Shown here piece by piece: positions 8,560 through 20,000 of a stretch of 20,000 bases of DNA. The notes beneath the pieces are model-generated. The model searched no databases, was not told where the DNA came from, and saw only the letters and a program-made list of their open reading frames with translations. Within the stretch, counting starts at the first letter, position 1. Each line of letters opens with the position of its first letter. The DNA is from an uncultured virus (IMG/VR IMGVR_UViG_3300011871_000032) (lineage: Duplodnaviria; Heunggongvirae; Uroviricota; Caudoviricetes). The position numbers were made by a program, and so were the translations under genes. The stretch lies in IMG/VR virus record IMGVR_UViG_3300011871_000032. One strand, given 5' to 3'.

Positions 8560-8611
8560 ATTATAGCTTTTTATAGGGTTAAATACAATAAAAAAGAGGC
8601 CGTAGCCCCTT
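8560..8611 (-). promoter_or_regulatory. Terminator (c(UACG)g) fused to a sigma70 promoter
   Basis: GGGGC-TACG-GCCTC-TTTTTT, then -35 TTGTAT (8588-8583), 17 bp, -10 TATAAT (8565-8560). Confidence 0.75.
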
Positions 8612-8624
8612 ATTTTATAAACAC

Positions 8625-9320
8625 TTAGATAAAACCTAAGAACATCGGATGATCGATTAAAGCTTGAATTTTCGGTTTTAAATCTTCCATTTCCATCATA
8701 TAGTCATCAGATGAGTTTATATAAAAACCCTTTGCTTTTGACACTGGCAAATGTTTACCATGAGGTTTCGTGAAAATATCCATGAAATTATTTTCATCCA
8801 TTTCTTTTTCCAGCAAGCTCATTTTCTTTTTGAGTTCTTCTTTTTCACTTTCTGGAGTAAAAGATGAATACAGTTCATCCATCACGTTATCATATTGTTC
8901 TTCAAGTTCAGCAAAACGGTTCTCATAATAGTTTTGAGAGTCAATCACTCCGCCGCTCATAACAAACTCTTCTTTTTCACGTTTATGATTAAATCCGCTT
9001 TTAATGCTAAATCCCCAGCAATATGGTTTTACTTTAAATTGGGTTTGAAGTTCTTTACGGTCAAAAGCAAAAATAACAAAACCGAAGTTTTTAGAAACAG
9101 ACAGATCACGACTCATAGACCAACCATACATCCATTTAGAGTCATTATAGATAGGATCGTTGTCTTTACGACGAATACCATCAGTCCAGAAACGTTGTGT
9201 TGTGTGAGCTTCAAAAAAACCACGATTTAAAATATCCATTACTTTAAAGATGCTAACACCATGCCAAAGCACACCTTGGCTTTTGATATCTAACATTTCA
9301 GCATTCGTGATTTTTTTCAT
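8625..9320 (-). CDS. Putative ADP-ribosyltransferase-fold protein
   Basis: LWHG (beta1 His), WSMSRD (S-x-S motif) and EKEEFV (E-x-E) occur in the order typical of ART domains, followed by a coiled-coil C-terminal part. Confidence 0.55.
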   Translation of the reverse strand: MKKITNAEMLDIKSQGVLWHGVSIFKVMDILNRGFFEAHTTQRFWTDGIRRKDNDPIYNDSKWMYGWSMSRDLSVSKNFGFVIFAFDRKELQTQFKVKPYCWGFSIKSGFNHKREKEEFVMSGGVIDSQNYYENRFAELEEQYDNVMDELYSSFTPESEKEELKKKMSLLEKEMDENNFMDIFTKPHGKHLPVSKAKGFYINSSDDYMMEMEDLKPKIQALIDHPMFLGFI

Positions 9321-9376
9321 TTTCTTTCACTCTATGATTTTTCTATGTTGTCATTATACACAGAGTTTAAGGCAAC

Positions 9377-9405
9377 AAAAAAGAGGCCGAAGCCTCTTCT
9401 TTTTT
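9377..9405 (-). terminator. Intrinsic terminator, c(UUCG)g loop
   Basis: AAGAGGC-TTCG-GCCTCTT-TTTT. Confidence 0.8.
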
Positions 9406-10117
9406 ATAGATAACTTAAATCTTTAGGTTTAATTTTCACATTATAACCCATAGATTTTAAGAATTTAGTATCAAAATCAATTACTTTATCACGCATGGAA
9501 CCTTCTGTAGCTACATCATCCATTTTATTACTGGTAGTAGCTACAGCAATAAAAGAGTTATAATGCATTTCAACAAAAACCATCTGATCAGCATTGATAG
9601 TTCCGATTAAAATAATAGGTGCATTATCAATCTCATCGTAATGGTTGCGTAAAACAGACTTGCCATTTTCTAACATTTCCATCTCTTGAATAGCATCATA
9701 CATTTGTTTAAACGCATCTTGAGGAATACTTCCCGTTTCATCAGTTAAGTAGCCAAATAGAGATACTTTTTCACCTTCTGTTTTTTCTTTTGAAGATTCT
9801 TTCTTTTCTTTTTCAATTTTAGAATAACGCTCTACTTGATAAGCTTTCAGCAGATTATCTACCACCTTTTCATTTGAATTCAATGATTCATAGATTTTGA
9901 GATCACCCGGCATAGTTGCCATCAAACTGTTGTTTACTACTACGCTAATCTCATCATTAGCATGATGATATTTGGATACAATAATACCATGAGTTGCTTG
10001 GAAAGCTTTTGGAACAAGCTCACTAGTGTTCAAACCAAGATAGTTAACCATAGAAAACTCTGGCAGAGTTTCACGTTTAACATCATGACGAATAGCAATG
10101 ACAACTTGGTTTCCCAT
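9404..10117 (-). CDS. Hypothetical protein (237 aa)
   Basis: The ORF-track start lies in the -35 box; the better start is ATG 10117 (MGNQVV) with RBS AAGGA. Confidence 0.75.
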   Translation of the reverse strand: MGNQVVIAIRHDVKRETLPEFSMVNYLGLNTSELVPKAFQATHGIIVSKYHHANDEISVVVNNSLMATMPGDLKIYESLNSNEKVVDNLLKAYQVERYSKIEKEKKESSKEKTEGEKVSLFGYLTDETGSIPQDAFKQMYDAIQEMEMLENGKSVLRNHYDEIDNAPIILIGTINADQMVFVEMHYNSFIAVATTSNKMDDVATEGSMRDKVIDFDTKFLKSMGYNVKIKPKDLSYL

Positions 10118-10147
10118 TTCTTTTTCCTTACTCGTTAATTTAGGTTT

Positions 10148-10204
10148 ATTATAGCTTTTTTTCTCGTTATGCACAATAAAAAAGAGGCCGCAGCCTCTTC
10201 TTTT
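10148..10204 (-). promoter_or_regulatory. Terminator (c(UGCG)g) fused to a sigma70 promoter
   Basis: GAGGC-TGCG-GCCTC-TTTTTT, -35 TTGTGC (10176-10171), 17 bp, -10 TATAAT (10153-10148). Confidence 0.75.
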
Positions 10205-10222
10205 CTTAATTTTTATACTACT

Positions 10223-10498
10223 CTATACCAGAAACTCTACAGTGAAAATCCGGGCGCTCTTGCTCAACTGGTTTTTCTCCTGTAGTTCTCTCATAATACG
10301 AAGAGCTTCATGTTTATCAGAAAACATTGCTACATGAATATCTTCAAGCATTCCATGATTACCACTTTTAAACTGCTCGTAATGCTCTTTCAACGTTTTA
10401 CACGCGATTTTACCACCATCAGTCACTTCCTGAATAAAGGAAGGATTCCACGCATCGCGGCATAAAACACCTTCTTCCGAACGAATCATAGCTGTCAT
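10223..10498 (-). CDS. Hypothetical protein (~91 aa)
   Basis: Preferred start ATG 10498 (MTAMI) with RBS GGAG. Confidence 0.65.
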   Translation of the reverse strand: MTAMIRSEEGVLCRDAWNPSFIQEVTDGGKIACKTLKEHYEQFKSGNHGMLEDIHVAMFSDKHEALRIMRELQEKNQLSKSARIFTVEFLV

Positions 10499-10614
10499 TT
10501 TTACTTCTCCCACCCGTTTAATCTAAGTAAATAATAGCATATTTACTAGACGACTCTCAAGCTATTTTCCTCATTATCAGTTTTTTTAAAGCATGTCTCA
10601 AACAAATAAAAATA

Positions 10615-10683
10615 CTAATATACTTCCGCAAAGTGCTTAGCGGTTATCTCTTCGGCATGACTTACTGCGTATTCTTTATCATA
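10615..10683 (-). pseudogene. Probable 3' remnant of a gene interrupted by the IS607-type element; it also supplies the putative guide
   Basis: Immediately after the element end it reads YDKEYAVSHAEEITAKHFAEVY* with no start of its own. Confidence 0.4.
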
Positions 10684-10910
10684 CCGTTTATTTTAAACTG
10701 TACAAATCTGATTACATGAATAAAAACGTAACTACCGAAGGTGGTTACATAAAAACATCATATAATTATTTAGTTTAAAATACTTATTTTAAGCTCTCAT
10801 TTCCAGACGCATGGCGACTGGAAATAAACAGCTCTTGGCATAACGGAATACCAGTACTGCCCAGTATCAGAAATGATATCTTACTTAATACAGGCTCTGT
10901 ATTAAGGTCT
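10684..10910 (-). ncRNA. Putative TnpB omegaRNA scaffold, copy 1 (5' boundary approximate)
   Basis: Overlaps the tnpB 3' end. Hairpins at 10884-10906 (10-bp stem), ~10799-10825 and 10728-10748 are also present in copy 2, plus a conserved terminal block of about 30 nt. Confidence 0.6.
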
Positions 10911-12547
10911 ATGCTCTCACCTCTTTTTGATACTGTTTTATGCAGGTGTTTTAACTTGGACCAGCCGGAGGCCGCTCCTGCGTCGAATATCATCTTTCTT
11001 AGTGATATCCTCTCTGCCGTTATTACACCTGTTTTATCTTTTTTAACTTTCAATATAGAGGACGGGATTTTCTCACGATATCCCTGTCCTCTACGGGCTA
11101 TCACATATGCCGCTGGCATATGCTCATTATTCTTCGTCGTTATTTTCGTCCTGTATTTCAGGTTTCCAAGGAAACTTGTATATGCCGGGTTTACTGTTAA
11201 CAAATTAACTCCAAGCTTCCAGCATTGCCCGATAAAATACTCCCTTATTTTTCCATACGCAAACGCACTCAGCATACGGGCATAGTTTTTATTGTAATTA
11301 TCTTTTAATGCTTTTTTCTTTTTCGTAAAATCCAATTCTTCTATTACGATACTTTTACCACGGCTCAAGGCATAGTCCACTATGCCTTTCGTCGCCTGAC
11401 TTAATACTGTTTTACGCTGTTTCGTTGACTTGTCTTTCAGATCCAACGTTATCGACCAGCCACGCAAATAGTTTCCTTTTTCATCTGTTTCCGCTACGTC
11501 CAAGTGGTCTGGATTGATATCAACCCCTATCAGGCCATAGCGTTCTACAGTCTTTATCTCTGGCTTTATATCATGACTTGTCTGTAAACCTATACCGATA
11601 TCAAAATTACCTTTGCTGTTTCTCATTAATCTGATTGAAAGCGAAGATGTAGGAGAAACTAACGTTCTCCCTTCTGCCTTAGCTGCTTCCTTCTGAGCTT
11701 TCGTGTATTTAACTTTCCCTTCACGGTGAAACAGGATGTGATTACGTAGTTCCTCTTCATAATAGGAAACAGTAATGGGAACAGAGAGTTTAGAAAAACT
11801 GAATTGTTTTTTTAATGCCACAGGAACAGTTATATTTAATGTGAATTCGTTATTTTTATTAATATTTATATTAGCATTGGAGTTACCCAAGTTTTCATCG
11901 GTAGACCCTACGAATAACATATGCCCGTAGCGTAAAGCGTTCCATTGCTTTCTCCATGAACTTAGTTTTACTTTATCATTAGGATGGATACGGTTTCGTT
12001 TACTTAGCAGGTCTGCAGAACCATAGCATATTTTAAAATCACTATTGGCTATATCATATTGTAGCTTTTGTTCACGACAGCGTAAGCGTTCAAGCTGGTT
12101 AAGAAAAACCGTTTTCTTTTTTACTGCTTCGGATAAGCGGGTGCGATTCGCCGCATAGCTACGCATAACGGGTGTCATACTATTAATCAGTTTTATCGTA
12201 TTAACCTGTTTCTGTAGCTTATTTTCAACGGATTTTATCTTATCTTGCACATTATCAAGGTAGTTTTTCTTGTTGGATAATTGTGATTTAATCTGTCCTT
12301 GTACCTGCTGGAATAAACCAGCATTAAATATCCGATAAGGTAAAACATCATTTTTATCACATAATGATTTAACTTCCGCTATTTTAAGCCCGTCAAGTGA
12401 TTTCTTTTTTATCTTGGATGTGGTGATAAACTTAATGTGGTTATAATGATTCAGATACACGTCAAGAAAAGACAGTTCCTCTGCGGTGAAAGCAGATGAT
12501 TTTATCTTTGTATTAATCGTAATAGTGCGTGTATCGGAGTTAGCCAA
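10784..12547 (-). CDS. tnpB: IS607-associated TnpB-like RNA-guided nuclease (587 aa), RuvC-III His variant
   Basis: RuvC-I GVDINPDHL, RuvC-II IVIEELDF, VNPAYTS, then NEHMPAAYVIARRG where canonical TnpB has a CxxC zinc finger and a DxD..AAxNI motif; TTG start with RBS AAGGA. Confidence 0.85.
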   Translation of the reverse strand: MANSDTRTITINTKIKSSAFTAEELSFLDVYLNHYNHIKFITTSKIKKKSLDGLKIAEVKSLCDKNDVLPYRIFNAGLFQQVQGQIKSQLSNKKNYLDNVQDKIKSVENKLQKQVNTIKLINSMTPVMRSYAANRTRLSEAVKKKTVFLNQLERLRCREQKLQYDIANSDFKICYGSADLLSKRNRIHPNDKVKLSSWRKQWNALRYGHMLFVGSTDENLGNSNANININKNNEFTLNITVPVALKKQFSFSKLSVPITVSYYEEELRNHILFHREGKVKYTKAQKEAAKAEGRTLVSPTSSLSIRLMRNSKGNFDIGIGLQTSHDIKPEIKTVERYGLIGVDINPDHLDVAETDEKGNYLRGWSITLDLKDKSTKQRKTVLSQATKGIVDYALSRGKSIVIEELDFTKKKKALKDNYNKNYARMLSAFAYGKIREYFIGQCWKLGVNLLTVNPAYTSFLGNLKYRTKITTKNNEHMPAAYVIARRGQGYREKIPSSILKVKKDKTGVITAERISLRKMIFDAGAASGWSKLKHLHKTVSKRGESIDLNTEPVLSKISFLILGSTGIPLCQELFISSRHASGNESLK

Positions 12548-12601
12548 TATGAGTTTATCCTTTGTTTTATAAAAGAAACATACCTTATATTATGTCTAAA
12601 A

Positions 12602-12800
12602 TCAAATAATTGCTTTTTTATTTGAATGAGAGTGCTTTCCGTATAACTTAGCTAAAAATACAGTTACTATAGTAATTAGATCCTGAACAAGTTGATTTTC
12701 AAAAGAAAGCTCTTCTTTCTGTCGTAAAACAGTTAATTTCACGTTAAAATGAAAACATATACGTTCAAAAAGTGGAAACCCGAAGCATAATAATCGGCAT
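12602..12800 (-). pseudogene. tnpA: C-terminal remnant of IS607 TnpA (serine recombinase)
   Basis: CRLLCFGF (degenerate DRLxRFGF) ... ENQLVQDLITIVTVFLAKLYGKHSHSNKK matches the IS607 TnpA C-terminus (ELVxDLxxIxxxFxxxLYGxRSHKxK). The HTH and catalytic-Ser N-terminal half are absent. Confidence 0.8.
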
Positions 12801-12816
12801 CTAACAAGATACCGAT

Positions 12817-12845
12817 ATACTATCACATCATTATATTAAAGACAA
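12817..12845 (-). promoter_or_regulatory. Native-type sigma70 promoter directly upstream of the tnpA remnant and tnpB
   Basis: -35 TTGTCT, 17 bp, TGn-TAGTAT; same TTGTCTTTAA start as the promoter at 6831. Confidence 0.5.
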
Positions 12846-12853
12846 TAAAATGA

Positions 12854-13318
12854 TTACTTATATTTTCTTTTACTTTCTGCAGAAAGTTGAGGTTTTACAG
12901 CACTTTCAATTTCAACAACATGATCAAAATGTCTATTGAAAGCTACCTCTTCTTTTTCAAACATTTCTCTTGATTCTATGCCATTATTTTTTACTTTTAA
13001 TAAGTATCCTTCTATATCATCAGTTACTGAACCATCCCAAGGATCTCTTCTCAGTATTTTATACATTCCTACTGTATTATTTTCATCAAACTCATTCTTT
13101 TTCATTTCTTCTAATGAAGCTACAGCATTTACAATGTTATCCTGATGAACAATAGGAATGGTATCCCAAAGTTCTACCAAATCCATTTCACCTTTTCCAT
13201 CCTTTACAATATCATTCCATAGATAAAGATAGGTTTCATGTGGTAAGTCATCACTTGTTTCTGCTAAACCATCTGGAGTACATCCTATAAGTAAGTTTTC
13301 TACAACTATATTTTTCAT
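12854..13318 (-). CDS. Hypothetical protein (154 aa, acidic with basic C-terminal tail)
   Basis: RBS AAGGA, own promoter; ends ESKRKYK. Confidence 0.75.
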   Translation of the reverse strand: MKNIVVENLLIGCTPDGLAETSDDLPHETYLYLWNDIVKDGKGEMDLVELWDTIPIVHQDNIVNAVASLEEMKKNEFDENNTVGMYKILRRDPWDGSVTDDIEGYLLKVKNNGIESREMFEKEEVAFNRHFDHVVEIESAVKPQLSAESKRKYK

Positions 13319-13347
13319 AATTTATTCCTTTGTCGATTATATATTCA

Positions 13348-13398
13348 ATTATATCAAGCTTTTTCTTTCGTGCAATAAAAAACCACCCGAAGGTGGTT
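13348..13398 (-). promoter_or_regulatory. Terminator (c(UUCG)g) fused to a sigma70 promoter
   Basis: AACCACC-TTCG-GGTGGTT-TTTT, -35 TTGCAC, 16 bp, TGn-TATAAT. Confidence 0.7.
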
Positions 13399-13440
13399 AA
13401 TTTAATAATATTTTAGTTTTAACTTTGTGTCAAATCAAAT

Positions 13441-14106
13441 TTAAACTTTTGTATTTAACACTTCTAATCTTTTAGCGTTAAGTTGTTTAATTTTATCAGA
13501 ACTTACTTTGATATCAGCAAGCAGTGAGTCTACAGCCTTTTCAGCTTCTGGATAAGCTTCTTTATACTTTTTACTATTTTTATTTGCCCCACTCATTTGC
13601 TTAGCTACAATTTCTTTTACAATACGCTCCATATTAGAAGATAATGATTCTCCATTAGATAGCGTCTTTATCATTGAACAACCAAAATCACTTTTATTCA
13701 GGATATTATAGATAAACGATGCTTCCAGAACATCTTCTACTATTTCTTTTTGAGAGTTAATTTCTTTCACTAACTGCTCTACAACATCTTCTTTTGTCAT
13801 TCCAAATTTAGCGATTTCTTTTTCTTTATGGACAGCGTTAGCTGCTTCAATCTTATCCATACGCTCTTTATCTGCTGCTGCTTTTTTCTCTGCTTTTACA
13901 GCATCAATAAGACCATTATCACCTGTTTTGTTCAGGCAGTCGATACCTACAACAGACACCTTACCATCTGCTGATTTGATAAAGAAACGGTTTTTTAATA
14001 CGGTACCACAATGCTCACAAAAAAATACACCGCTTTCTTGTGGTTTACACAAGCTAAAAGGAGCCTGACCTAAACCCGATAATGTAAAAACGTGTACTTG
14101 TTTCAT
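13441..14106 (-). CDS. Hypothetical protein with N-terminal zinc-binding motif and coiled coil
   Basis: CEHCG...VVGIDC motif of a phage-type zinc ribbon; own promoter (TAGATT-17-TAGAAT, 14166-14138). Confidence 0.7.
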   Translation of the reverse strand: MKQVHVFTLSGLGQAPFSLCKPQESGVFFCEHCGTVLKNRFFIKSADGKVSVVGIDCLNKTGDNGLIDAVKAEKKAAADKERMDKIEAANAVHKEKEIAKFGMTKEDVVEQLVKEINSQKEIVEDVLEASFIYNILNKSDFGCSMIKTLSNGESLSSNMERIVKEIVAKQMSGANKNSKKYKEAYPEAEKAVDSLLADIKVSSDKIKQLNAKRLEVLNTKV

Positions 14107-14168
14107 GTGAGTCTCTCATCGTTTATTTAATGATATGATTCTATCATAATAACAACAAAAAATCTACT

Positions 14169-14200
14169 AAAAAAAAAAAAAACCCCCCCGCAGGTGGCTT
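14169..14200 (-). terminator. Intrinsic terminator, c(UGCG)g loop
   Basis: GCCACC-TGCG-GGGGGT plus a long T run; near copy of the 1316-1336 terminator. Confidence 0.7.
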
Positions 14201-14209
14201 TTATTTTAA

Positions 14210-14440
14210 TCAGTCTTTCTGTTCAAACAGTTTGTAGAAACGATCTACAGTTTTATAGATATACTGGCGAGATACTTCATATTTAGCACTCATATCTTTT
14301 ACATTTTTCTTGTCTACCAGCACTTCTTCCAACAGCTTGTTAGTGCGAATACTCCAACCTTCGATTGCTGGTGATTTTTCTGCCCACTCATCAGCAGTCA
14401 GATGTTTTACATTGTTAGTATCTTTTTTTGGTTTTGCCAT
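14210..14440 (-). CDS. KorA/TrfB/ArdK-like HTH transcriptional regulator
   Basis: HLTADEW...EVLVDKKNVKDMSAKYEVSRQYIYKTVDRFY parallels the KorA N-domain (RLTESQF...GVLVDGKPQATFATSLGLTRGAVSQAVHRVW, recalled from memory); RBS GGAG; downstream of ssb. Confidence 0.7.
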   Translation of the reverse strand: MAKPKKDTNNVKHLTADEWAEKSPAIEGWSIRTNKLLEEVLVDKKNVKDMSAKYEVSRQYIYKTVDRFYKLFEQKD

Positions 14441-18459: not shown

Positions 18460-18470
18460 TTGTTTATTTA

Positions 18471-18790
18471 CCGTTTATTTTAAACTGTACAAATCTGATC
18501 ATATATAATAAAACGTAAACTATCAGGTTTTACCGAAATGTCTCATTTCGTTTTTAATATGTAAATACTTCGTATTTGCGTAAAAAACATCATATTGAAT
18601 AAAATGTAACTACCGAAGGTAGTTACATAAAAATATTATATAATCGTTTAAGTTTAAAATACTTATATTAAGCTGTTTATTTCCGGTCGCATAGCGACTG
18701 GAAATAAACAGCTCTTGGCATAACGGAATACCAGTACTGCCCAGCATCAGAAATGATATCTTACTTAATACAGAGCCTGTATTAAGGTCT
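18471..18790 (-). ncRNA. Putative omegaRNA scaffold, copy 2, 91 nt longer than copy 1
   Basis: Hairpins at 18764-18786, 18671-18713 (19/20-bp stem) and 18604-18628, plus extra hairpins at 18534-18550 and 18558-18582. Confidence 0.6.
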
Positions 18791-20000
18791 ATGATTTCAC
18801 CTCTTTTTGATACTGTTTTGTGCAGGTGTTTTAACTTGGACCAGCCGGAGGCTGCTCCTGCGTCTAATACCATCTTTCTTAGTGATATCTTCTCTACCGT
18901 TATTACACCTGCTTTATCTTTTTTAATTTTTAATATAGAGGACGGGATTCTCTCGCGGAATCCCTGTCCTCTTCGGGCTATCACATATGCCGCTGGCATA
19001 TGCTCATTATTCTTCGTCGTTATCTTCGTCCTGTATTTCAGGTTTCCAAGGAAACTTGTATACGCCGGGTTTACTGTTAATAAGTTAACTCCAAGTTTCC
19101 AGCATTGCCCGATAAAATACTCCCTTACTTTTCCATACGCAAACGCACTCAGCATACGTGCATAGTTTTTATTGTAATTGTCTTTTAATGCTTTTTTCTT
19201 TTTCGTAAAATCTAAGTCTTCTATTACGATACTTTTACCACGGCTCAACGCATAGTCCACTATGCCTTTCGTCGCCTGACTTAATACCGTTTTACGCTGT
19301 TTCGTTGACTTATCTTTTAAATCTAACGGTACCGACCAGCCACGCAAATAGTTTCCTTTTTCATCTGTTTCTGCTACGTCCAAGTGGTCTGGATTGATAT
19401 CGACACCTATCAGACCATAGTTTTCCACGGTCTTTATCGCTGGCTTTATATCATGACTTGTCTGCAGTCCTATGCCTATATCAAAGTCACCTTTGCTGTT
19501 TCTCATTAATCTGATTGATAATGAGGATGTAGGGGAAACTAACGTTCTCCCTTCGGCCTTAGCCGCTTCCTTTTGAGCTTTCGTGTATTTAACTTTCCCT
19601 TCCCGGTGAAAAAGGATGTGATTGCGTAATTCATCTTCATAATAGGAAACAGTAATCGGAACAGAGAGTTTGGAAAAACTGAATTGGCTTTTTAACGCAA
19701 CAGGAACGGTTATATTAAGAATAAAATCATTATTCTCATCAATGTTTATATTAGCATTGGAGTTCCCCAAGTTTTCATCGGTAGACCCAACGAATAACAT
19801 ATGCCCGTAGCGTAAAGCGTTCCATTGCTTTCTCCATACACTTAGTTTTACTTTATCATTAGGATGGATACGGTTTCGTTTACTCAGCAGGTCTGCAGAG
19901 CCATAGCATATTTTAAAATCATTATTAGCTATATCTTTTTCCAGTTTTTGTTCACGACAGCGTAAGCGTTCAAGCTGGTTAAGAAAAACCGTTTTCTTTT
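18610..20000 (-). CDS. tnpB: TnpB-like nuclease copy 2 (5' end outside the window)
   Basis: Frame stays open upstream of 19800 (...TVFLNQLERLRCREQKLEKDIANNDFKICYGS...). Same RuvC motifs: GVDINPDHL, IVIEDLDF, NEHMPAAYVIARRG. Confidence 0.85.
   Translation of the reverse strand, partial: KKTVFLNQLERLRCREQKLEKDIANNDFKICYGSADLLSKRNRIHPNDKVKLSVWRKQWNALRYGHMLFVGSTDENLGNSNANINIDENNDFILNITVPVALKSQFSFSKLSVPITVSYYEDELRNHILFHREGKVKYTKAQKEAAKAEGRTLVSPTSSLSIRLMRNSKGDFDIGIGLQTSHDIKPAIKTVENYGLIGVDINPDHLDVAETDEKGNYLRGWSVPLDLKDKSTKQRKTVLSQATKGIVDYALSRGKSIVIEDLDFTKKKKALKDNYNKNYARMLSAFAYGKVREYFIGQCWKLGVNLLTVNPAYTSFLGNLKYRTKITTKNNEHMPAAYVIARRGQGFRERIPSSILKIKKDKAGVITVEKISLRKMVLDAGAASGWSKLKHLHKTVSKRGEIIDLNTGSVLSKISFLMLGSTGIPLCQELFISSRYATGNKQLNISILNLNDYIIFLCNYLR

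Follow-up and report, generated by a model that had tools for sequence, protein, structure and literature searches.

We analyzed a 20,000-nucleotide (nt) stretch of DNA from an uncultured virus of the Caudoviricetes (IMG/VR record IMGVR_UViG_3300011871_000032), here referred to as the window, and focused on positions 10615–12845. The minus strand from 10684 to 12796 carries the right-hand 2.1 kb of an IS607-family transposable element (copy 1), namely the end of the transposase gene tnpA, a tnpB-like gene, a structured 3' region and the right end. An earlier interpretation made from the letters alone (the sequence-only reading) had taken this locus for a candidate domesticated RNA-guided system. 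The results described below point instead to what is probably a recently immobilized, truncated copy of a selfish element. The features are as follows, where G001 denotes the nearest relative record and ORF an open reading frame.

12817–12845, minus strand: the interrupted ORF's native phage promoter (TTGTCTTTAA-N13-TAGTAT), which now precedes the tnpA remnant and tnpB
12793–12816, minus strand: 5' hairpin of the phage transcript, with a 10-bp stem; phage-derived, and present in G001 with two differences and then a run of T
12792–12796, no strand: deletion junction with CGATT microhomology (phage side GCCGATT, tnpA side ATCGTTT, one mismatch)
12602–12796, minus strand: tnpA remnant, the last 64 codons and stop of an IS607-type serine transposase (profile NF033518)
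10784–12547, minus strand: tnpB-like gene of 587 amino acids (aa) with D343, E403 and H476 and without a zinc finger (TIGR01766; family alignment)
10684–10852, minus strand: omegaRNA-like candidate scaffold of four helices, ending at the right-end GG and overlapping the last 23 codons of tnpB
10664–10683, minus strand: flank that would serve as guide, TATGATAAAGAATACGCAGT, 20 nt directly after the right end and occurring once in the window
10615–10683, minus strand: 3' remnant of the interrupted phage ORF, 22 codons and stop, the end of a 141-aa ORF that is whole in G001
18470–20000, minus strand: second element copy (copy 2), with its right end at 18470, scaffold at 18471–18732 and tnpB from 18610 past the window end

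The tnpB-like ORF is open throughout and begins with TTG behind an AAGGA motif. The sequence-only reading had described an intact tnpB of 587 aa that keeps the RuvC-I Asp and RuvC-II Glu, lacks a CxxC zinc finger, has His at the third acidic position and is long for a TnpB, with an N-terminal coiled-coil segment, and all of these features are present. Residues 375–458 match the TnpB-related domain TIGR01766 of NCBIfam (54.7 bits, cut-off 32); the guided_TnpB model NF040570 scored 46.8 bits, below its cut-off of 100, and the Pfam TnpB models gave no match to the protein. Across a 22-sequence family alignment reaching down to 21% identity, D343 and E403 do not vary, and the nearly invariant E353 was considered as a putative extra acidic ligand. 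A profile search of PDB sequences pairs the GxDxN and IxxExLD/NPAYTS motifs with the corresponding Cas12f blocks, RuvC-I, RuvC-II and PxYTS. No CxxC...CxxC is found between NPAYTS and the last RuvC helix, and 15–17 residues separate NPAYTS from His476, which lines up with the Asp of a relative from a Thermus phage (KDVAAAYVIGRR) when the two are set in ungapped register from the shared AAYVI(A/G)RR. The AlphaFold model built on the 22-sequence alignment (mean predicted local distance difference test score, pLDDT, 78.8; predicted template-modelling score, pTM, 0.57) contains a helical hairpin of two long paired helices (71–122 and 132–167), an RNase-H-like core and a last helix that opens with H476, with residues 519–587 modelled at low confidence. 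Foldseek matched it in the PDB to Cas12k (2e-10), AsCas12f (4e-10), the RuvC resolvase (2e-5) and Fanzor2 (7e-5), and also to Cas12m and CasX, all at low template-modelling scores of at most 0.4. As in a TnpB, a split RuvC fold holds the RuvC-I Asp and the RuvC-II Glu, and the N-terminal half is WED/REC-like.

The histidine is not peculiar to this copy. It is present in 21 of the 22 aligned family sequences, the remaining one having Asp; by eye, another 40 homologues show it in 38 cases and Asp in two. At E ≤ 1e-3, a profile search of 1.84 billion representatives returned 4,448 clusters, of which 1,362 reached E ≤ 1e-30. Among the matches listed, His opens the ..AA..IARR helix in 137 of 146 new representatives; seven of the other nine fell outside the search pattern, one has K at aberrant spacing and one has A. 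None of these 146 listed representatives has CxxC...CxxC after the PxxTS motif, and their median spacing from that motif to His is 15 residues. Moreover, the His, the missing finger and the extra length also occur in family copies with a full tnpA. RIIIr-4 is described as a major TnpB clade in which the RuvC-III Asp is changed to His and the C4 zinc finger is lost, which is over-represented in viruses, and for which the authors infer retained catalysis from conservation of the altered site (PMC10691335, Altae-Tran et al., PNAS 2023). Both the His at RuvC-III and the absence of a C4 finger between RuvC-II and RuvC-III are found in the 587-aa protein, so that by these described traits it fits the RIIIr-4 type. 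The sequence-only reading had seen in the Asp-to-His change, the missing finger and the length the marks of a nuclease-dead, co-opted gene; these are clade-wide traits, not derived here. Nor is the missing finger a sign of inactivity, because the likewise finger-less Cas12r is described as mediating interference that depends on RuvC (bioRxiv 10.64898/2026.04.20.719267). The source of one family member labels it Citrobacter freundii.

Upstream of tnpB on the same strand, an ORF of 74 codons (12602–12826) matches positions 127–187 of the 187 in the IS607 transposase profile NF033518 (E 2e-14, 53.4 bits, cut-off 110), and tblastn with a full TnpA covers residues 128–189. The order tnpA–tnpB is that of an IS607 element and is repeated in 12 loci with a full tnpA. 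A complete serine-recombinase TnpA, with its N-terminal MerR-like DNA-binding part, is absent here, only those profile positions being present, and copy 1 is a derivative of an IS607-family element, not a complete member. The remnant is in frame, without stop or frameshift, and shows one private change at 26 invariant columns. Thus the "~65 degenerate C-terminal codons" of tnpA in the sequence-only reading were right as to length (64 codons and stop) but not as to degeneracy, for the remnant has barely decayed.

The nature of the truncation became clear from comparison with G001, a virus record 341,648 bp long with an estimated completeness of 97%, which shares 40% of the window's sampled words; because this is the nearest relative, we treat the replicon as a jumbo phage. 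Both flanks of the element match G001 at 93–98%, and no homologue of the TnpB-like protein was found in a search of that record. At site 1, G001 has the same promoter and hairpin followed by the intact 141-aa ORF (L001:4103–4528), of which the window keeps the last 22 codons after the right end and has lost the first ~364 bp. The 188-aa ORF at site 2 is intact in G001 and reads ...TATTGGG/TAAATAAAC... (here and below, a slash marks the junction) exactly at the position of copy 2, which lies inside this ORF 7.9 kb from copy 1, extends on the minus strand from 18470 beyond 20000 and is 92% identical to copy 1 in nucleotides. Both window copies are therefore insertions into phage ORFs, copy 1 having additionally lost left-side DNA; PHROGs gave no family for either interrupted ORF. 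Homology to G001 stops at 12792 and homology to the intact tnpA of locus L062 can begin at 12796, where the phage and tnpA sequences have CG-TT in common as microhomology. One deletion of ~0.8–0.9 kb at this short microhomology took the left end, tnpA codons 1 to ~124 and the 5' 0.36 kb of the target ORF and placed what remains of the element directly behind the promoter and hairpin of the phage, so that copy 1 cannot transpose. The left-end motif has no match anywhere in the window. The right end ...AAACGG/T is identical to that of other copies, full copies running GGG/T...ACGG/T. The loss of the left end and most of tnpA, which the sequence-only reading had proposed, is thus supported by G001 and by full elements alike.

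The promoter at 12845–12817 is the interrupted ORF's own, and the same promoter stands before the intact ORF in G001. It belongs to a class (TTGTCWTTAA-N13/14-TAnnAT) with five intergenic copies upstream of minus-strand genes, so that the claim of a native, backbone-type promoter held. The bare 10-mer with at most one mismatch occurs 13 times against 6.0 expected, a number reached in 4 of 200 shuffles; a generic sigma-70 scan did not list this class. The 10-bp hairpin that had been placed at the junction is real (12793–12816), but it is native phage sequence, the junction coming just after it (12792–12796). A tnpB standing behind a backbone-type promoter, with the left end absent, counts in favor of a cassette adopted by the phage.

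At the other side, both window copies end in ...GATCAGATTTGTACAGTTTAAAATAAACGGT and then diverge, and since two copies share this end, the right ends can be fixed at 10684/10683 and 18471/18470. The claim of an IS607-type right end, with the guide TATGATAAAGAATACGCAGT beginning behind it, was in this way confirmed, since the flanks of the copies differ. Close to the ORF end, copies ranging from 70% to 100% protein identity have an unchanged core of 17 nt, GGTATTCCGTTATGCCA. Minimum free energy folds of most copies show the same four helices: a short hairpin on the core GGTATTCCGTTATGCCA; a hairpin of ~19 pairs spanning the last codons of tnpB; a helix formed between the right-end AGTTTAAAATA and the bases that directly follow the stop codon; and an inner hairpin CTGAT...ATCAG. 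In an alignment of 13 sequences, 95.3% of the cells at 40 pairs are paired, as against 26.9–45.9% when the partner is slid, and two-sided changes occur at six pairs as against one to three when slid. The covariation score was reached in 0 of 500 shuffles, with the structure derived from the same sequences that were scored. On these computational grounds only, there is a structured guide-RNA scaffold that overlaps the gene's 3' end and stops at the right end, as in TnpB elements. Rfam gave no omegaRNA-type family, its sole match being queA at chance level (E 0.88). Over its last ~70 residues the protein is weakly conserved and modelled with little confidence, as fits a stretch where constraint on the RNA dominates.

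In the window-type subclade only, the loop of helix 4 carries one to four modules of a ~45-nt hairpin with a T-run, ending in ...TATGTGAT or ...TATATGAT (window 10720–10765 and 18510–18640; 3' regions of L062–L066). They look like intrinsic terminators or tiny insertions, and an inverted copy of one lies upstream of tnpB in L063. The 3' RNA region of copy 2 is ~91 nt longer than that of copy 1, and the tnpA and left end of copy 2 would lie past the window end.

We then asked where the guide points. Searched with up to three mismatches in the window and G001, it matches in G001 only the empty site, with one mismatch at position 18, and one further site with three mismatches. It therefore finds its own uninterrupted target allele and no redirected target, and by this comparison the guide is in the normal state for a TnpB element. 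A match to a related phage's allele with a single mismatch could also suit a weapon serving the phage; a guide that finds only the empty site and one 3-mismatch site speaks against domestication.

Copy 1 is not an isolated case. A 259-kb IMG/VR contig has two copies ~70% identical to the window protein. Locus L015 is complete, with a 192-aa tnpA (L015:3345–3923, 155.5 bits, cut-off 110), tnpB and the same right end, and its host ORF reads in frame through TGGG/T...ACGG/T. We judged the region upstream of tnpB in 17 distinct viral and metagenome loci. A full-length tnpA match is present in 12 (L015, L062, L065, L067, L068, L072, L074, L075 and L078–L081; in five of them in two pieces), and the other five have been truncated from the 5' side independently: window copy 1, cut at tnpA residue ~125; L014, with only the last ~35 tnpA codons; L063, without tnpA but with left-end-like sequence kept; L070, without tnpA; and L066, whose match begins at TnpB residue 237. 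Loci L062, L063 and L066 have one common right-end flank and represent three states of a single insertion site, so that L062 (full), L063 (tnpA deleted) and L066 form a decay series from the 5' side. Relatives also include internal deletions, and the 428-aa protein P0042, in which the first ~105 serine transposase residues are fused in frame to the C-terminal ~320 TnpB-like residues, is another deletion product. Left-end flanks read by eye show a GGGT terminus in 11 loci, with a variant left end after ACAGT in L062 and L063. The GGGT flanks agree with the GG core and the 5'-TGGG target and target-adjacent motif (TAM) of Clostridium IS607, described as shown experimentally (PMC10690162).

Two further loci deserve mention. 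Locus L070:465–2293 lies on a contig of 866,249 bp with at least three element copies, and 16 tRNA genes (only Asn, Ser and Trp) occupy the 1.8 kb directly upstream of its tnpA-less copy. Locus L064:1–2711 was tried as an orthologous locus for lineage-specific rates and rejected, being either a recombinant between copies or an assembly chimera: its first ~270 nt are the promoter/tnpA-remnant junction of the window and its tnpB is ~92% alike, but its right-end flank is different. By eye this flank resembles the 3' part of a tRNA (GGTTCGATTCC ... CCA), where ARAGORN calls none.

Constraint on tnpB was assessed from the rates of nonsynonymous and synonymous change (dN/dS), which are in the ratio 0.14 between window copies 1 and 2 and 0.16 between L014 and L015. 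In copy 1, none of 132 family-invariant tnpB columns has a private change. Against five close copies it has 16 nonsynonymous and 16 synonymous private changes, with 78% nonsynonymous expected under neutrality (p 5e-4).

Four public runs were compared over 10300–13300 as contigs, not reads, namely three non-RNA runs from three studies and one metatranscriptome. The truncated left junction is bridged by contigs in all three non-RNA runs and the right-end junction clearly in one; these runs also show further right-end copies with other flanks. Recurrence of the junction in three studies would favor a locus kept by the phage, but with 7 differences from the window in ~760 nt of flank the runs come from near-identical close relatives and indicate no deep conservation. 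Contigs of the metatranscriptome library cover 10300–11077, 11079–11734 and 11793–12802, the first bridging the right-end junction. In this run (X8) a contig ends at 12802, just downstream of the -10 element and without a loose end, and there is no cover over 12825–13127, where the DNA runs continue; as single-study contig data, these were not counted as a transcription start or as upstream silence.

Taken together, the locus is probably a recently immobilized, 5'-truncated IS607-family copy, that is, a selfish RNA-guided nuclease cassette in an AT-rich jumbo phage, and it resembles a usual stage, reached recently, that such elements pass through, not a newly domesticated system. The intact element comprises a left end, a serine-recombinase tnpA, a 587-aa tnpB of the zinc-finger-less D-E-H (RIIIr-4-type) clade, a structured RNA region of ~125–170 nt overlapping the tnpB end and the right end ...AAACGG, and inserts at GGG/T sites, here inside a small phage ORF. 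The deletion described above then left tnpB behind the interrupted ORF's own promoter. It is presumably young, because the functionless tnpA remnant is itself still open with only 1 of 26 invariant columns changed. By analogy, TnpB and its RNA would still act as an RNA-guided nuclease with the flanking ORF remnant as guide, and since the guide is that remnant, the natural target would be the uninterrupted allele. For IS605 and IS607 TnpBs, a role in retention and homing has been shown. The cassette can no longer transpose and would be a selfish relic, possibly still homing, rather than a regulator adopted by the phage.

Several observations weigh against this reading, and most of them favor an alternative that we consider unlikely: that the cassette is an inert relic, too young to have decayed, whose TnpB and RNA are of use to neither element nor phage because loss of a junction base, an altered helix 4 or an off-consensus TAM disables targeting. 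First, one base sets the right-end junction apart from expectation: the window reads ACGG/TATGAT, and G001 (near L001 ~4170) reads AAGG/TTATGAT, which predicts ACGG/TTATGAT, so that the guide of copy 1 may be out of register on G001-type alleles. Second, the TAM-like motif at site 1 is AGG(T) and not GGG(T). Third, in helix 4 of copy 1 two of six pairs are unpaired in the common register and a 45-nt hairpin is inserted. Fourth, the intact ORF is no evidence of use, for the non-functional tnpA remnant is likewise open and nearly unchanged. The sequence-only reading had suggested comparing the decay of the two genes: tnpB is indeed unchanged at all 132 columns, but its difference from the remnant (1 of 26) is not significant (p 0.16). 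Since the deletion is young and the remnant barely decayed, the intact tnpB proves little about selection after immobilization, and the signal on the private branch of copy 1 also covers time before the deletion. Furthermore, DNA may be present in the RNA library, and the literature searched contains predictions of activity for the RIIIr-4 clade and no reported assay of any member. Relatives with deeper truncations, the tnpA–tnpB fusion and internal deletions also favor the inert relic. Against inertness stand the 587-aa ORF without a change at any family-invariant column, the intact RNA helices 1–3 and right end, the bias of the private changes to synonymous ones and the RNA-library contigs that cover the gene.

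That the phage keeps the locus as a domesticated RNA-guided system expressed from its own promoter, either as a nuclease-dead regulator or as a weapon against co-infecting relatives with the uninterrupted allele, is improbable, even though exaptations of TnpB, including prophage-borne ones, are described (PMC10691335; bioRxiv 10.1101/2023.11.30.569447): Asp and Glu are kept, where the screen for TnpB-derived TldR proteins is described as requiring at least two of the three residues to be mutated (bioRxiv 10.1101/2023.11.30.569447), the right end is retained and there is no conserved partner gene. The notion that tnpB and its RNA were "retained and wired into" the replicon's program as a selected state does not agree with the intact, empty site in the nearest relative, the second copy in the same window, the comparable independent truncations at other sites (five of the 17 judged loci), the guide that matches only its own uninterrupted allele or the little-decayed remnant of a recent deletion. 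"Domesticated, probably nuclease-dead" fails because the signature is that of a known, probably active, virus-enriched clade, and because the locus is absent from the nearest relative, has a second copy beside it and has parallels elsewhere.

Within the favored reading of a recently immobilized selfish cassette, a further and rather speculative step may be considered. A cassette without left end or tnpA might be a free-standing RNA-guided homing gene of jumbo phages: expressed from the captured promoter, its ribonucleoprotein (RNP) would cleave the allele that is uninterrupted in co-infecting relatives, and recombinational repair would carry over the cassette along with the deletion beside it. 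If so, it would spread without a transposase and could also exclude competitors, and truncated copies with exact right ends (copy 1, L014, L063, L066 and L070) would be products of abortive one-ended repair from the right-end side and not of random decay.

As for the setting, the window is AT-rich, with 26–39% G+C per 1-kb window, and its minus strand carries nearly all long ORFs. PHROGs named a tail-collar fibre protein, a single-stranded DNA-binding protein (SSB) and a hydrolase among 28 neighbouring ORFs, most others having no named function. In the phage records, megablast of window 10400–13400 and tblastn of a 608-aa neighbour protein gave no match, and in tblastn the SSB found nothing better than ~59% matches, to unrelated phages. 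Two families of G+C-rich, terminator-like hairpin repeats (AAAAAAGAGGCCnnAGCCyCTT and AAAAACCACCCGnAGGTGG) punctuate the backbone intergenic regions:

8560–8621, 9347–9408 and 10148–10209: terminator-like hairpin repeats
1305–1349, 13366–13410 and 14167–14211: terminator-like hairpin repeats

Taken alone, the locus is what an insertion sequence routinely leaves behind as it decays, and its value is practical. For the TnpB clade with His and without a zinc finger, it is a natural test case whose limits are fully defined, supplying the protein, an RNA scaffold backed by covariation, the boundary between scaffold and guide, the GGG(T) target motif and two matching empty target alleles in G001. 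The elements are seen to multiply within genes and tRNA regions of jumbo phages, which opens RNA-guided homing from one co-infecting phage to another to direct testing.

Finally, we compared the locus with known systems. TldR proteins are described in bioRxiv 10.1101/2023.11.30.569447 as lacking transposon ends and having a deteriorated RuvC, a partner gene that is conserved and a guide directed against a promoter elsewhere, many being C-terminally truncated. Copy 1 resembles them as a TnpB derivative without tnpA and with a fixed guide, and some TldRs are phage-borne; however, it keeps Asp and Glu, with a His that is conserved in its clade and no deteriorated triad, it has a right end, a tnpA remnant and an empty site in G001, and in the window and G001 the matches of its guide are its own flank and the empty allele, not a promoter elsewhere (host genomes lay outside this search).

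Cas12r of Thermus phages is the nearest characterized relative (33% identity over 174 residues of the RuvC half, E 1e-21), and the closest annotated phage relative, L090:805–2975 in a record of Thermus phage Lalka8, is Cas12r itself, directly followed by an annotated repeat region of the CRISPR type. It is similar to the window protein in size, in lacking a zinc finger and in being phage-encoded. In contrast, Cas12r has Asp at the position of His476, a CRISPR array behind its gene and no place in an IS607 element; no CRISPR array is found in 9000–14000 or among the direct repeats of the window, as a Cas12r-like type V system would have.

In the IStron/IS607 elements of Clostridium botulinum, the guide is described as derived from the DNA flanking the right end, with the RNP targeting the empty site (PMC10690162). 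This IS607 type with TnpB and omegaRNA is like the window element in having tnpA upstream of tnpB, a GG core, a (T)GGG motif and a right-flank guide. The window element differs in having no group I intron, a TnpB of another clade (D-E-H) and a jumbo-phage host, and copy 1 is without the left end and most of tnpA, so that only repair-based copying could spread it. Compared with RIIIr-4 as described, the 587-aa protein is long by a helical insertion in its N-terminal half and copy 1 has lost its transposase and left end, but it has the RuvC-III His, the absence of a C4 zinc finger and the viral host of that clade.

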